Shown here: piece after piece, positions 597 to 63,696 of the stretch
How positions within the stretch are numbered: the first letter of the stretch is position 1
Layout: every line of letters begins with the position of its first letter
Assembly: GCF_044704955.1 (NCBI RefSeq)
Contig: NC_091991.1
Location: 69,936,001 to 70,000,000, forward strand
Direction: 5' to 3'
Source of the DNA: Pristiophorus japonicus
Lineage: Eukaryota
Length of the DNA stretch: 64,000 bases
Notes under the pieces: model-generated
What the model saw: only the letters and a program-made list of their open reading frames with translations
The model's database searches: none
What the model was told of the DNA's origin: nothing
Position numbers and translations under genes: made by a program

Positions 597-698
597 CTGA
601 AGTGGGTGATCTGATTTTCAAGGAGGCGCTGAAGTCTTTCTTTAATCTCATTAAATCTTTCCTTCTCTTCAACTGTTACGGTTCCAATTCCATCAGGT
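597..698 (-). CDS. CADPS2: CADPS2 coding exon: (R)[33 protein letters not shown](R)
   Basis: 102 nt; polypyrimidine tract with tttcag acceptor, donor gtaatc; phase 2 to 2; absent from the ORF track. Confidence 0.93.
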
Positions 699-45559: not shown

Positions 45560-45696
45560 CAGACAGGAATATGAATCGTTCAGTCTGTGCTCTAATGTTT
45601 TCCTTTGAAGCACTTCGAACAGGGCCGAATGGTCAAACTTGCAGGGATCTGCAGCAATGAACTCATCCATTCCGTGCTTCTGAGCTCGATCTGCAT
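45560..45696 (-). CDS. CADPS2: CADPS2 coding exon: (Y/D)[45 protein letters not shown]
   Basis: 137 nt; acceptor ctacag, donor gtgagt; phase 1 to 0. Confidence 0.94.
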
Positions 45697-48944: not shown

Positions 48945-49711
48945 TCTGTGTCTATCTTAGGACCAGCAGCTTTGATGATTTAAACTAACAAACAAACAAG
49001 GACACACATGAAAGCAAGCGAGTGGCCTGACTCAGACTGTAGTGTGCACAAAATTCTCCTCAGAACATGACTGGTACGCCTGAATGCTAAGTGTCCATTT
49101 GTAATGGATCTTCAAAGAACTGGGAGCTGGGAAGTGGGTGGAAATTTTAATATAATTGTTCCTGGTTAGCCCTCTCCTTAATATAGGGCCACCTTCCTTA
49201 TCACATGTTAATTTTCCAGGCTTCAATGGCCAAATTCTGCAAGGGAATTTAAGTCGCAAAGTGTTGAAAAAGAAAAAGAAAAGAGGCAATGTACAGGCAA
49301 AAGCAGCCCTTCACGCGCTGCTGGTCTCCAACTGCCCAGCCCTGATCCCCACTGCATTCCCAGTGCATCCTGTCCAAGAAAGGCTACAGAATTAGCAGGT
49401 CTTCACAGAGAACCAAAGAACTGTGCAATAAACCCCCACCTTGGAGATTCCACTGGATTATGGATTCATTGTATTTTAGTCATACAACTAAATTCCATTG
49501 GTACGAACTGGGCTCATCTTTACCTTTTGCCCTGACAGAGACATTAGGAGGGATATTAAACTTTGATCAGATGAACCTGATAAGATAGTAACAAGTTCTG
49601 ATCTGATATCTGCATTCATTTGGTTTTAATTCTGAAAATAAACACACCAGTGGTATCAGGGGCACCTACTGCACAGACATTTTTTCTGCTTCTTTCGCTA
49701 CCCCCAATTCT

Positions 49712-50116
49712 TCTAGAGTTTCGAAGAGTGAGAGGTGATCTCATTGAAACATATAAGATTCTGAGGGGGATTGACAGGGTGGATGCTGAGAGGCTGTTTT
49801 CCCTGGCTGGAGAGTCTAGAACTAGGGGGCATGGTCTCGGGATAAGGGGTCGGCCATTTAAGACTGAGGTAAGGAGGAAATTCTTCACTCAGGGGGTTGT
49901 GAATCTTTGGAATTCTCTGCCCCAAAGTGCTGTGGATGCTGAGTCTTTGAGTATATTCAAAGCTGTGATAGATAGATTTTTGGGGAATCAAGGGATATGG
50001 GGATTGGGTGAGAAACTGGAGTTGAGGTCGAAGATCAGCCATGATCTTATTGAATGGTGGAGCAGGCTCGAGGGGCCAAATGGCCTATTCCTGCTCCTAA
50101 TTCTGATGTTTCTGTG
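49712..50116 (+). mobile_element. Short CR1 3' fragment
   Basis: LEFRRVRGDLIE...WNSLPQ and 3' stem-loop. Confidence 0.88.
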
Positions 50117-52618: not shown

Positions 52619-53088
52619 TAATATATCAAGATGCAGCCTGCCTGACGGTTTCATCTCAAATTCACTCATATGCACAATTGTATATTTCCTTTATATTTAA
52701 AGAAATCAAAATAATAAACTTGTGCCTGTCTTCCATTAATATTCCTGTAATGCTCACACCCTCTAGGCATTATTTAATCTGGAATTGGTTACATCTACAA
52801 GAATGAGAAAATATTTCTCCAAATTACACGGAAATGAAAACACTAAACTAAACAAGGCTCTCAAGACGATACGTAAATACTGCCGTCGTTCTTTACGTGA
52901 GTAAATTCACCATCAAGGGGAAACAAGCTTTCTGCATGAGCGAGCTAAAAGCACAAATGTGACAAGGCAGAGGGCCATAGCACGCAGACAGGTGAAGGGG
53001 CAGGTATCTGCCGCATGCAGTGTTTATCAGACAGTGGCAAAGCAAGACGTTAGCACAAGCCTGTAAATGACAGCTCACACAGCCGACT

Positions 53089-53123
53089 CGAGAGCGAGAG
53101 AGAGAGAGACAGACAGACAGACA
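53089..53123. repeat. (GA)n(GACA)n simple repeat, CU-rich in the pre-mRNA just downstream of the microexon
   Basis: gagagcgagagagagagagacagacagacagac. Confidence 0.85.
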
Positions 53124-53153
53124 AAGACTTGGCAGCATACACCTAGCACTTAC

Positions 53154-53165
53154 CCTTGGCTCCAG
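53154..53165 (-). CDS. CADPS2: 12-nt alternative microexon CTGGAGCCAAGG (SQF-SGAKD-ADRAQ when included, SQF-Y-ADRAQ when skipped)
   Basis: acceptor ...ttgctttgctaacatgtag, donor gtaagt; phase 1 to 1 and frame-preserving; lies at the junction where CAPS proteins carry SGKD/SGLKD inserts (recalled). Confidence 0.85.
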
Positions 53166-54216
53166 CTACATGTTAGCAAAGCAAGGAGAATAAAGCATAT
53201 TGAGGTGAAACAAATCGACAATAGAAAGATGTAGGGCTGTGCCGATCAAACAGAACTGATGCAACCGATTAAAGGGCTTTGGCGTCAGGTTGAAGTGTTT
53301 GGCAGAGCATTTTAACATGTCCTTGGACAGACATGGCTACAATGAAGAGCCAGCTGTTACGGCATGCCGCTGCTGATTGTGACTGGTGCCATAAAATAAT
53401 TTTATTTTTAATTGTTTTTAAAAAAATCTAAGATTAAAATGCACAAACTACACGGATACAATATCGCACAGTGCAACTTTGTCACGGTGGACGACAAAGC
53501 AGCAATGTAGCAGAATTGTTTGGTGTGGGCTCTTGCTGGGTTCCTCCAGAAAGTACACCTGGCCAACACTCCCCTATTGAATGGCACGGCCCCTTTAAAC
53601 ACCAACACACAGTGCAAGAAACACACAAACAATTATTGAGTTTGTCACTGAGCCAGTGATGACAGGTGGGATAAAACACTCCACACACACATACTGGGGG
53701 CCTGGATATTTCAAACTTATCACATAGGAAAATGCTGCGATGATGGTACCAACAATTCAAACAGCTTCAGATGCATTCTGGGTTTGGATCTGTCCTGGCT
53801 GAAAAAATGGAATTTGAAGGATTTGGGATGCATTTAGTGTGACATTAGTTGCACAGCAGTAGATAACTCATTAAGACTGGAAATTGCATCGGTTTTAGGA
53901 GAGTTTAATATATTGTAACACACAATTAACTAAGCTCATTAACTGAATGACCATTCAATTCTACAGCAACTTGTTGGACTAAAATTAAATTTCAAACTTG
54001 ACTGATGCACAAACATACCGACAGATGGTGTAGGATCCTAGAAATGAAGGGGGTGAAACATAGATACATTAAAAGAATAAGCACAGTATATTTAGTTACC
54101 AAAACAGTGCACTAGACAGAAAGAAGTAAACGTAAGGCCTTTACAGCAGTGCAACTTAGCACATTGTGGGGGAATGTTGTGGCCTCCAACACAGGGTGTG
54201 GGTGGCATGAAGATCA

Positions 54217-56978: not shown

Positions 56979-57191
56979 AGAACTGAGAAATAGGCACATC
57001 TGGCAGTTGTGCACTTCCTCCCTTGGCATTCAGCTTCTGGACCTGGGATGGAGGGACAGGCTTGTAGGACTGGCCTGTAGCTCTGTACATCGCTTGAACC
57101 CACAGCACCCGATCCTGTTCATCATCACTTGCATACACTACTGTGTCACCTTCTTTAACTGCATTGAAGAATGCCCGGCCACCATCTAGAC
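56979..57191 (-). CDS. CADPS2: CADPS2 coding exon, end of PH domain: (G)[70 protein letters not shown]
   Basis: 213 nt; acceptor ttgcag, donor gtgagt; phase 1 to 1; open and CAPS-homologous. Confidence 0.94.
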
Positions 57192-58135: not shown

Positions 58136-58244
58136 CTGGCTGTGGTTCTGTGTAGTCCACTGTGTATCCTTCCAGTTGCATTAATTCCTGGGGCTCAGAT
58201 TTCTTTTCTCTGTAACTACACATAGCAAACGTGTACTGACTAAC
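58136..58244 (-). CDS. CADPS2: CADPS2 coding exon, PH domain: [36 protein letters not shown](G)
   Basis: 109 nt; acceptor tttcag, donor gtatcg; phase 0 to 1; [13 protein letters not shown] is CAPS2-type. Confidence 0.94.
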
Positions 58245-58585: not shown

Positions 58586-61500
58586 TGTTATGTTCAGAAT
58601 AACGCCACAAGACTGTATACTGTAAGCTCAAACTGTTGTGACCTTGGTCTCTTTAATGTAACTCCAGAGTGAGGAAGCAGCATGGTAGACTGCCTTTTAT
58701 ACCTGCTTGCACAGGGTGTGCAGGTGACCCTTGGGTCTCCAACAGGTGCGCCCCTTGATGGCAAGTCTTACACATTGGTAAAGTTTACATAAATAACATC
58801 ACTCCCCCCCAAAGTCTTAGATACAAGTTATTTACAAGTTGAGGTGATCCGGGGCTCTATGATCTCGGGTTGGTCACCTGAGTTGAAGTCCTGGGTGGGT
58901 GAGTTGGTTGGATCATTGCTGCACTGCGGCACGGTTGGTCTGATCGGACTGTTGGGCATGGTGGGTTCATCCTCGTGATTAACAGCGAGGTCGATTGCTG
59001 GTTGGGTGTGTGTTGGTGGATCAATGATGGTAATGTCCTCTTCAAACTGTTCTTGGTTGTCAGTGAATCGCAGTTTGGTCTGATCCAAATGCTTTCTGCA
59101 CGTTGGTCCATTCAAAAGTTTGACAACAAACACTCTATTCCCCTCCTTGGCTAAAACAGTGCCAGCAACCCATTTGGGATCATGACCGTAATTAAGAACA
59201 AACACAGGGTCATTAACCTCAATGTCACGCGATACAGCCGCGTGATCGTGGTACAAGTTATGCCGGTGACGCTGGGTTTCTACATGATCTTTGAGATCCG
59301 GGTGGACTAAGGAGAGCCTGGTTTTAAGTGCTTTCTTCATTAACAATTCTGCAGGAGTAACCCCGGTAAGTGAATGGGGTCGCATCCGGTAGCTGAGCAG
59401 AACCCGAGATAACCGGGTCTACAGGGAACCGCCATCACGCGTTTCAAGCTCTGCTTGATAGTTTGGACTGCCCGTTCCGCTTGACCATTGGATGCGGGCT
59501 TAAACGGGGCAGACCTGACATGCTTGATACTATTGCGGGTCATGAACTCATTGAATTCTGAGCTGGTGAAACATGGTCCATTGTCACTAACAAGGATGTC
59601 GGGCAAACCAAGGGTGGTGAACATGGCCCGGAGGCTTTCAATGGTGGCAGTGGATGTACATGAAAACATTATTATACATTCAATCCATTTAGAGTAAGCG
59701 TCCACTGCTACTAGGAACATCTTTCCTAGAAAGAGGCCAGCGAAATCTACGTGGACCCTGGACCATGGTTTGGAGGGCCATGACCACAGACTCAGTGGGG
59801 CCTCCCTTGGTGCATTGCTCAACTGTGAGCAAGTGTTACATTGGTGCATGCATGACTCCAATTCGGAGTCAATGCTGGGCCACCAAACATGCGACCTAGC
59901 AATAGCCTTCATCATGATTTTTCCTGCGTGGGTACTGTATAGGTCACGTATACACGTTTGTCTGCCTTTTTGTAGCAAAACCACACGATTCCCCATAGGA
60001 GACAATCCGAATAGATGGACATGTCATCTTTGCGTCGGTAAAGCGACTTAATTTCGTCTTGCATTTCCCCGGGAACAGCCGACCAGCTCCCATTAAGGAC
60101 GCAACGTTTTACTAGTGATATCACAGGGTCCTGGCTAGTCCAGGTCCTGATCTGGCGAGCCATGACGGGTGACCCCTTGCTCTCAAAATCATCCATTACA
60201 AGAAGCAAGTCTGCAGGTTGCGCCATTTCCACCCCGGTGGTGGGCAATGGTAGCCGGCTGAGGGCATCAGCACAGTTCTCAGTGCTGGTCTGTAGCGGAT
60301 TACATAGTCATGTGCAGATAATGTTAGTGCCCATCTTTGGATGCGGGATGAAGCATTGGTGTTAATACCTTTGCTTTCTGAGAACAGCAAAATGAGCGGT
60401 TTGTGGTCGGTTTCGAGCTCGAACCGGAATCCAAATAGGTATTGGTGCATTTTCTTAACCCCGTATACGCATGCTAATGCTTCTTTCTCAACCATACTGT
60501 GGGCTCTTTCAGCCTTAGATAAACTTCTGGACACATAAGCAACCGGTTGCAGTTTGCCTGACACATTGGCTTGCTGTAACACACAACCAACCCGGTACAA
60601 AGATGCATCGCAAGCTAGTACTAAACGTTTACACGGGTCATACAATACAAGTAAATTGTTAGAACATAGCAGGTTTCTGGCCTTGTTAAAGGCTGTCTCT
60701 TGAGGTTTAGCCCAGTCGTCACCCTTGCGTAGCAATAAATGCAAAGGCTCCAGCAAAGTGCTCAACCCCGGTAGAAAGTTACCAAAATAGTTGAGGAGTC
60801 CCAGGAACGAACGCAGCTCCGTCACATTCTGTGGTTTGGGTGCATTCTTGTTGGCCTCCGTCTTGGAATCCGTGAGTCTGATGCCGTCCGCCACAATCTT
60901 TCTCCCCAAAAATTCGACCTCTGACACCAGGAAAACACACTTGTAGCGTTTCAGCCTGAGTCCCAATCTGTCCAGTCGCTTTAGAACCTCTTCCAGGTGT
61001 GTGCAAGTGTTCGGTGGTGTTGCGACCAGTGATCAGGATGTTATCTTGAAACACCATGGTGTGCGGCACCGATTTCAGCAGACTCCATCTTCCTCTGGAA
61101 GATGGCCGCAGCCGAGCGAATCACAAAAGAGCATCTGTGGTATATGAACAGTCCTTTGTGTGTGTTGATGCACGTCAATTTTTTCGAAGGTTCAGCCAGC
61201 TCCTGTGTCACGTAAGCAGAGGTTAGATCTAGCTTGGTGAACGACTTGTGAACGACATCCCCCCTGCTAGCGTAGCGAACAGATCATCCGCTTTGGATAG
61301 TGAGTACTGGTCCTGTAACGAGATTCGGTTGATCGTTACCTTGTAGTCCCCGTAGATTCTGACTGTCCCATCACTTTTCAACACCGGAACAATTAGACTG
61401 GCCCACTCGTTGAACTCGACTGGCGATATGATCCCCCCTCGTTGAAGTCTGTCCAGCTCGATCTCGACTTTCTCTCGCATCTTGTATGGAACTGCTCAGG

Positions 61501-63121
61501 CCTTGTAATGAACGGGTCGTGCAGCAGGGACGAGATGGATCTGCACTTTGGCGCCTGTGAAGTTGCCGAAGCCTGGCTCGAATAACGACAGGAATTTGTT
61601 TAGCACTTGGGCGCACGAGGTGTCATCCACCGAAGACAGTGCTTTGATGTCATTCCAGTTCCATTGGATCTTTCCTAGCCAGCTTCTGTCGAACAGCAAT
61701 GGACCATCGCCTGGTACAATCCATAGTGATAAATCATACACAGTTCCATCGTACAATACTTTCACTGCCGCACTGCCATTGACTGGTATGAGCTCTTTGG
61801 TGTAAATGCACAGCTGTGTGTGAATCGGGCTTAGTTTTGGCCTTTGTGCCTTGTTGCCCCACAGTTTCTCAAAAGCCTTCTGGCCCATAATTAACTGACT
61901 CGTCCTCGTGTCCAATTCCATGGAAACTGGAATGCCGTTTAATTTGACTTTCAACATTATCGGAGGGCTTTTGATGGTGAAGGTGTGTACTCCATACACT
62001 TCCTCTTCAGCCTCGGGTTGAGTTGCCTCTCTTACTCGTTCAGTGTGATCTGCGCCAGATCGGTCATCTTCTGCCGACTCTGCCACGTGGTGAGTCGCAG
62101 GGCATTTGCACATTCGCTGGAGGTGCCCCATTGTTCCACAGCCCCTGAACACGTAGTGCTTGAATCAACATTGATGGGCTCTATGATTGCCCCTACAGTG
62201 CCAACATGGTGTTAATGGATTCGCATTCATGCCCCATGGCGGACTCTGAGTCATCCTCTGCAGGCATGTAGGTCCTGCCATGTACAGTTCTGCCTGCTAA
62301 AGGTGTTATTTTATGCACAGTACTTGCCGGTGAGCTTCGATGCTGCAAAGATATCTGTTTAGTGTTATTGTTCGTGGACATGAAAGCCTGGGCTATCATG
62401 ATGGTCTTGCTCTGATCTGAGGATTCGGCAGACAGCAGTTTGCGAAGAATGACCTTGTGGCTGATTCCAAGCATGAAAAAATCCCGCAACATTTTCCCCC
62501 AAAAATCCAGCAAATTCGCACAGTCCCGCAAAGCATCTTAGGTCGGCGACATAGCTCGGCACGTTCTGGCCCTTGGAGCGATATTGCATGTACCTGGCCA
62601 TTAGGATGCTCTCATTCGGCTTGAGGTGTTCCCGAACCAGCGTGCACAACTCTGCATATGTCTTGTCCATTGGTTTCGTCAGTGCTAGCAGATTTTTGAC
62701 GCCGCCATATATCGTGTACCCACAAACGGTGAGGAGAATCGCCCTGCGCTTGACCGCAGTATCTTCCATATCCAGCTCATTGGCCATGAACTACTGATCA
62801 AGACGCTCAATGGAGACTTCCCAATCATCACCCTCAACAAATCTCTCAAGAATACCAATGGTAGCCATAACCGCTTGAAAGTTCGTGATCTGTTACTCGT
62901 TGCCAATTGTTATGTTCAGAATAACTCCACAATACTGTACACTGTAAGCTCAAACTGTTGTGACATTGGTCGCTTTTAATGCAACTCCAGTGTGAGGAAG
63001 CAGCATGGTAGACTGCCTTTTCTACCTGCTTGCCCAGGGCATGCAGGTGGCCCTTCAGTCGGCTATGGGTGTGCCCCCTGGTGGCAAGTCTTACACACTA
63101 GTAAAGTTTACATATATAACA
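58586..63121 (-). mobile_element. Full-length decayed Ty3/Gypsy (Mag-like) LTR retrotransposon
   Basis: LTRs 58586-58798 and 62908-63121 (TGTTAT...ATAACA); 5-bp TSD GGAAG; PBS-like TGGCAACGAG; PPT ggggggagtga; domain order gag (CCHC), PR, RT, RH, IN. Confidence 0.95.
58828..62870 (-). pseudogene. Gypsy gag-pol pseudogene with many frameshifts and stops
   Basis: CGTMGHLQRMC, MELDTRTS (protease site altered), FQDN (RT site altered), LACDAS, ETDHKPL, HVDFAG, VSDNGPCF and SNGQAER motifs. Confidence 0.92.
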
Positions 63122-63629: not shown

Positions 63630-63696
63630 CTGCACCAGGACAAAGTATCGCTTCTTCCACCGCTTCCAAACCTTCTGCCCAAGCGCATAAAGGTAC
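63630..63696 (-). CDS. CADPS2: CADPS2 coding exon, start of PH domain: (G)[22 protein letters not shown]
   Basis: 67 nt; acceptor ctgcag, donor gttagt; peptide matches the CAPS2-type [22 protein letters not shown] as recalled (CAPS1 has [18 protein letters not shown]); ends in phase 0 and joins the next exon. Confidence 0.93.

Follow-up and report, generated by a model that had tools for sequence, protein, structure and literature searches.

The window analysed here, a 64,000-nucleotide stretch of Pristiophorus japonicus DNA (contig NC_091991.1, positions 69,936,001 to 70,000,000), carries part of CADPS2. Apart from a putative microexon, six coding exons lie in the window, all on the minus strand. 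The microexon falls in the 11.3-kb intron between the exons that end at 56979 and start at 45696, where it is accompanied by several candidate splicing signals:

63630..63696, minus strand: CADPS2 exon, start of the PH domain (protein alignment)
58136..58244, minus strand: CADPS2 exon, PH domain (protein alignment)
56979..57191, minus strand: upstream CADPS2 exon, end of the PH domain and linker; its last base is the T of a split codon
53166..53236, minus strand: 3' splice-site region (sequence), a 69-nt AG-free pyrimidine-rich zone with UGC at -32, -18 and -13 and acceptor TGTAG
53154..53165, minus strand: likely 12-nt cassette microexon CTGGAGCCAAGG, phase 1-1, turning Tyr into Ser-Gly-Ala-Lys-Asp (sequence, and SGAKD/SGIKD models of other sharks)
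53145..53153, minus strand: strong 5' splice site GTAAGTGCT, top donor score of the host intron, 9/9 identical to the CADPS1-type locus L002
53090..53144, minus strand: pyrimidine-rich tract 3' of the donor, in part simple repeat; 71% pyrimidine at +10..+60
53049..53053, minus strand: CTAAC at +101 (sequence)
53014..53019, minus strand: TGCATG at +135, candidate RBFOX enhancer (sequence)
45560..45696, minus strand: downstream CADPS2 exon; its first bases are the AT of the split codon
18829..19016, minus strand: CADPS2 exon
597..698, minus strand: CADPS2 exon

The four downstream exons match proteins named Pristiophorus japonicus CADPS2 (P0006, P0008) with 100% identity. A quick maximum-likelihood tree of 24 rows, which included no shark CADPS1, lamprey or amphioxus row, placed six cartilaginous-fish rows inside the CADPS2 clade (SH-aLRT 97), with five CADPS1 rows forming a separate group (99). 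Together with the C2 (389-488), PH (493-592) and MUN (810-1248) domains found by Pfam in protein P0022, this clade supports the assignment of the gene to CADPS2 made in the first-pass annotation. Inside a CADPS2 intron, at 58800-62800 on the minus strand, lie ORF pieces resembling the pol of a Gypsy-type LTR retrotransposon (protease, reverse transcriptase, RNase H and integrase, labelled by reading) that are interrupted by stops and frame changes. A repeat at 49703-50116 has a further copy elsewhere in the window and includes an ORF that we take to resemble the end of a LINE reverse transcriptase. Between 50936 and 58582, self-BLAST returned no window-internal repeat; to the extent that self-comparison, as opposed to a repeat library, can speak to it, this agrees with the earlier statement that about 1.6 kb around the microexon is free of transposable elements.

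Inspection of the sequence showed the microexon (53165-53154) to be bounded by AG and GT, with TGTAG directly 5' and GTAAGT directly 3'. Both junctions of the host intron are phase 1. Because the upstream exon contributes a single T and the downstream exon AT, skipping makes Tyr (SQF-Y-ADRAQ) and inclusion makes Ser-Gly-Ala-Lys-Asp in frame (SQF-SGAKD-ADRAQ), just as had been claimed for a 12-nt phase 1-1 exon at this position. The first-pass annotation was also accurate about the surrounding motifs: TGC starts at exactly -13, -18 and -32, the closest upstream AG stands at -73 and so leaves 69 nt free of AG, and TGCATG is found at +135, starting at 53019. The CU-rich tract that it described after the donor is present, although part of it is a short (TCTG)n/(TC)n repeat (53090-53121). 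The CTAAC at +101 resembles a QKI site. TGCTAAC at -13 resembles a branch point but seems too near the AG to be a true one. RNA folding of the acceptor region was no better than that of shuffles (z 0.28 in the window, 0.56 in L002), and thus no structural mechanism is put forward.

The frequency of comparable signals was assessed with donor weights taken from general knowledge and filters fixed after the candidate had been seen. Under these settings, the microexon alone among the 206 frame-preserving YAG..GT candidates of its intron had a donor score of at least 5, and no other of 975 candidates from four introns passed the donor, AG-free zone, UGC and pyrimidine filters as it did; none of 858 antisense controls passed all four. 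Individual motifs are weak evidence alone: 33% of randomly chosen positions have a TGC within -25..-6, and chance would place a TGCATG within 150 nt in about 8% of cases. The pattern AG-C-N-GGN-NNN-AAR-G-GT has its sole match in the 64 kb, both strands included, at the microexon, which is to say in the right intron, strand and phase.

Two other sharks have both spliced forms among their predicted protein models. Among 139 cartilaginous-fish CADPS2 rows, 9 read SGAKD, 5 SGIKD and 121 Tyr, and 4 are without the site. The 14 inclusion rows belong, among the matches listed, to 2 of 23 species counted by name: Scyliorhinus canicula (9 SGAKD, 5 Y) and Chiloscyllium plagiosum (5 SGIKD, 1 Y). The other 21 species have no inclusion model among the matches listed, and the insert occurs in none of the six listed P. 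japonicus rows identical to this gene, isoforms X2 and X7 falling outside the six. Models of C. milii and A. radiata include a different microexon (GRE, described below) and not the post-PH one. For so short an exon to enter a model, the NCBI pipeline needs transcript support. The exon had been called hidden, which is apt for those species whose models lack it and not for the two sharks whose models contain it; at the level of the peptide, the S. canicula and C. plagiosum models support its reality. We regard the 53165-53154 segment as a likely cassette microexon of shark CADPS2.

The peptide also extends beyond cartilaginous fish, being found in teleost CADPS1, turtles and a muntjac. Teleost CADPS1 rows are split between SGLKD (31 of 59) and Y (28). 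The shorter SGKD appears in 20 of 120 amniote CADPS2 rows, all of them from turtles (6 genera), and again in a muntjac CADPS2 row (P0290); turtles and muntjac together suggest that the 9-nt form likely goes back to the origin of amniotes. Two peptides named in the first-pass annotation were thus recovered in part: SGKD of mammalian CADPS2 was seen in the one muntjac row as well as in turtles, and the 12-nt SGLKD of CADPS was seen in teleost CADPS1 only, the mouse Cadps exon being given as 9 nt, GLK, in the available portion of PMC12287369. No insert at the post-PH site was present in the bichir, sturgeon/paddlefish, coelacanth and squamate CADPS2 rows examined, nor in bird, platypus and marsupial rows, which were retrieved with the skipped form as query and are biased accordingly. 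The accessible part of a zebrafish neural-exon table (PMC12626424) holds four cadps2 exons, none placed at the post-PH site, and no cadpsa or cadpsb rows. This junction varies in other ways too, in models P0214, P0451 and P0461 and in P0475, P0237 and P0270: the linker is shorter by 12 residues in sturgeon and paddlefish, and snakes carry short unrelated inserts (SKFL, SFF), probably through alternative splice sites.

A scan of metagenome contigs yielded 18 loci, 3 of them of vertebrate type. In one of these, L002, the exon gives its highest score with CADPS1 rows (356, compared with 311 for shark CADPS2), and at 2091 the locus contains a 12-nt exon identical to the window microexon at 9 of 12 positions. 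Its acceptor agrees with that of the window at 9 of 11 positions from -13 to -3, a match that, among 4241 AG sites on the window minus strand, only the microexon's own attains; UGC stands at -13 in both, and the donors are identical (9/9). Overall, shark CADPS2 and L002 share 29 of 34 bases from -13 to +9. L002 further has an AG-free zone of 104 nt, 86% pyrimidine at +10..+60 (71% in the window), CTAAC at +111 (window, +101) and TGCATG at +131 and +284 (window, +135); the downstream UGCAUG is a single comparison subject to the same 150-nt chance of about 8%, and in a MAFFT alignment the TGCATG motifs of L002 and the window were not placed opposite each other. The whole comparison of cis-motifs involves this one paralogous locus. 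The other two, CADPS1-type L001 and L003, contained no microexon in the approximately 2.3 and 1.8 kb of intron that they respectively cover. The shared exon, acceptor, UGC, donor and TGCATG suggest that exon and cis-elements were likely in place before the CADPS/CADPS2 duplication, in line with the origin previously proposed. The length of 12 nt, also proposed before, is likely ancestral by parsimony applied without a jawless outgroup, with the 9-nt form derived through loss of one codon toward amniote CADPS2 (SGKD).

In size (within 3-27 nt), frame preservation, canonical splice sites, UGC near the 3' splice site, extended AG-free pyrimidine zone and strong donor, the exon resembles the SRRM3/4-dependent neural microexons, as it does in its conservation from shark to mammal and its insertion into a flexible linker. 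It is likely an ordinary member of this known class. The UGC architecture of SRRM4 microexons has been described, and according to the available text UGC is not strictly required for the response (10.1101/2024.09.17.613571), which makes its presence weak evidence. The same source reports that shark orthologs of SRRM4 microexons respond like human ones in minigenes, CADPS not being named among them in the part available, and an extended region between branch point and acceptor is described in the accessible portion of PMC12871342. Closest to the shark exon is human CADPS2 exon HsaEX0012135 (9 nt, chr7:122480852-122480860), whose PSI in HEK293 cells was 0 with GFP and 99.26 with SRRM4 overexpression (PMC7935315, S4 Data). 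By coordinates in this file, the human CADPS2 exons follow one another as 9, 21, 120 and 15 nt; the order in the shark protein is SGAKD (626), a 7-residue exon (835), GRE (910), a 40-residue exon (after 1015) and a 5-residue exon. HsaEX0012135 precedes the 21-nt exon, so its place in the order speaks against the MUN site and agrees with the post-PH site. It is thus an SRRM4 target of the same gene, apparently at the same site, which differs in length from the 12-nt shark exon, and the amniote peptide SGKD fits the SG-x-KD pattern. We consider HsaEX0012135 the probable human ortholog, judging from exon order and peptide pattern.

The SGLKD exon of CADPS (CAPS1) shares junction, phase and the layout of acceptor, donor and downstream motifs with the shark exon, and is likewise 12 nt in teleost DNA (L002); it differs in belonging to a paralogous gene, in having Leu where sharks have Ala or Ile, and in the 9 nt stated for mouse. 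GLK, the peptide given for mouse Cadps, equals whole codons of SGLKD, and its exon is described as strongly included in motor neurons and little in olfactory neurons in the part of PMC12287369 available. In the shark, neural control and regulation by SRRM4 and RBFOX are inferred. An exon of 12 nt would be too short for normal exon definition and would be skipped by default; SRRM3/4 would then act through the UGC at -13 within the long AG-free pyrimidine zone, with help from the strong donor and perhaps from RBFOX at +135.

Our searches of the open literature, with subscription papers and closed supplements outside their scope, returned nothing on this exon in sharks or on its origin before the duplication. 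No mention of 'cadps' occurs in the 12 supplements searched for PMC12626420, nor in the main texts of PMC12871342, 10.1101/2024.09.17.613571, 10.1101/2022.04.02.486809 and PMC12056172. PMC7821500 names a presynaptic Cadps microexon without giving its site. Two further candidates were set aside, as PMC13232204 concerns a 69-nt exon and the accessible part of PMC1853102 describes other exons.

The insert occupies residues 626-630 of P0022. Its placement just after the PH domain in the first-pass annotation is right as to the C-terminal side, but a gap of 34 residues separates it from the Pfam PH end (592 versus 626). Three matching CAPS1 chains were found in the PDB, none of which spans the insert. 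In an AlphaFold2 model of catshark residues 362-869, the insert (model positions 265-269) lies inside the sole segment with pLDDT<50 (245-275), which connects the PH domain to the helical domain that follows; in the model of the skipped form, this linker is of low confidence as well (340-367). The pTM values of 0.48 and 0.63 are too low to fix domain orientation. According to the available text of PMC3849599, the PH domain binds PIP2 and MHD1 binds SNAREs. Inclusion would replace Tyr with SGAKD, a gain of four residues, at the C-terminal end of a predicted flexible linker joining the PIP2-binding PH domain to the helical region ahead of the SNARE-binding MUN domain. By lengthening and recharging this hinge, the insert would most likely tune the reach or coupling of the PH and MUN parts in vesicle priming, an effect modelled on the linker-extending microexon of DAAM1 (PMC12056172, part available), from which the shark exon differs in also altering the junction residue (Tyr versus Ser...Asp). 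Literature searches found no functional data on the CADPS post-PH insert.

The explanation that we favour, and hold as a whole to be highly probable, is a cassette microexon inherited from the CADPS/CADPS2 ancestor, included in neural and neuroendocrine cells via SRRM3/4 and skipped elsewhere. Chance splice-like intronic sequence deserves almost no weight: every single motif is common, but the sole pattern match in 64 kb falls in the correct intron, strand and phase, other sharks' models spell the same peptide, and the flank match with L002 also contradicts it. Decay of the exon to a relic that this lineage no longer splices, parallel to a possible loss in ray-finned and squamate CADPS2, would account for its absence from the six listed models identical to this gene and its apparent absence from several other CADPS2 lineages; intact splice sites, a peptide identical to that of the catshark and flanks that still match a paralog at non-consensus positions make this very unlikely.

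A real exon that in this shark is not neural or not driven by SRRM3/4, and instead is broadly included, depends mainly on RBFOX- or QKI-type factors or is confined to a neuron subset, appears improbable to us. TGCATG and CTAAC recur downstream at similar positions in L002, and the mouse Cadps exon is low or skipped in olfactory neurons (PMC12287369, part available), both as such a reading would expect; yet the probable human ortholog is fully off without SRRM4 and fully on with it (PMC7935315, S4 Data), UGC at -13, the AG-free zone and the strong donor are kept in both paralogs, and the predominance of skipping in shark models (121 of 139 rows) fits low inclusion outside neural tissue. As for the history of the exon, we think it unlikely that the CADPS1 and CADPS2 exons arose independently after the duplication, or that a 9-nt ancestor gained codons in CADPS1 and in shark CADPS2. 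Room for this is left by a comparison made without lamprey, hagfish or amphioxus and from rows that include neither shark CADPS1 nor a mammalian CADPS1 inclusion form, and 9 nt is the length given for mouse Cadps in the accessible part of PMC12287369. Against independent origins stand the 29 of 34 identical bases in shark CADPS2 and the CADPS1-type locus. A 9-nt ancestor costs two gains at one place versus one loss, and GLK would be three whole codons of a 12-nt phase-1 exon.

Where the microexon of the favoured explanation came from may be hinted at by protostome genes. Seven arthropod-type loci (L005, 479-1006; L007, L010-L014), most of them close relatives of one another, have a phase-1 intron at the same position, with both ends present and Asp at the junction; four others (L006, L015-L017) lack it. 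The arthropod-type loci have a G|AT junction and read ISKIQG-D-ADRARKHG, and Gly-Asp or Gly-Glu precedes an ADRA-like motif in 7 of 9 protostome-type proteins checked, two nematode-type rows differing. The vertebrate inclusion form keeps the Gly and Asp, and skipping creates a Tyr that protostomes lack. It is conceivable, though doubtful, that the microexon, instead of being newly exonised intron, is the cut-off 3' end of an ancestral exon, separated by intron gain before the CADPS duplication, and that the skipped form is a vertebrate invention. The match is short and requires two extra codons, and Asp would result here from any phase-1 exon ending in G. No SG-like microexon was found in the arthropod-type introns, and a 27-nt AG..GT candidate in five near-identical loci was unrelated in sequence. 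If this origin is true, intron gain turned an ancestral neuronal sequence into an SRRM-gated module.

Part of this picture is already known, since two sharks have the exon in their public models and the probable human counterpart has been catalogued as responsive to SRRM4. The present analysis, of modest overall importance, adds an exon missing from P. japonicus models and dates a known microexon, whose exon and splice signals appear older than the CADPS/CADPS2 duplication. In amniote CADPS2 it would later have become one codon shorter, and other lineages may have lost it. The naturally occurring forms of the PH-to-MUN linker, Y / SGKD / SG(L,A,I)KD, offer a direct test of linker length in vesicle priming, and the likeness of the inclusion form to the protostome junction makes a case for studying microexon origins.

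The analysis also tells apart two CADPS microexons that papers do not always separate. A 9-nt GRE/GKE microexon is present in the MUN region (P0014, P0043, P0048, P0264), outside the window and about 280 residues downstream of the post-PH site; GRE is found in models of 4 shark or chimaera species. As a second microexon of the same genes it resembles the post-PH exon in being neural and eMIC/SRRM-dependent (PMC12626424, part available). There, the other human 9-nt exon, HsaEX0012134, is paired with zebrafish DreEX0018370, which by exon order is the GRE site. Primers for C. elegans unc-31 (PMC12287369) translate to sequence around the MUN site, as do the Cadps primers of an RBFOX1 study (PMC13067610), and 'exon 19' in PanNET (10.1101/2024.06.13.598849) is probably the MUN-site exon too, all judged from the accessible parts of these sources. 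We therefore did not take these results as evidence on the post-PH exon, to which they do not transfer. The unc-31 primers flank the equivalent position in the nematode-type protein P0285, suggesting that the GRE/GKE exon may be as old as bilaterians.
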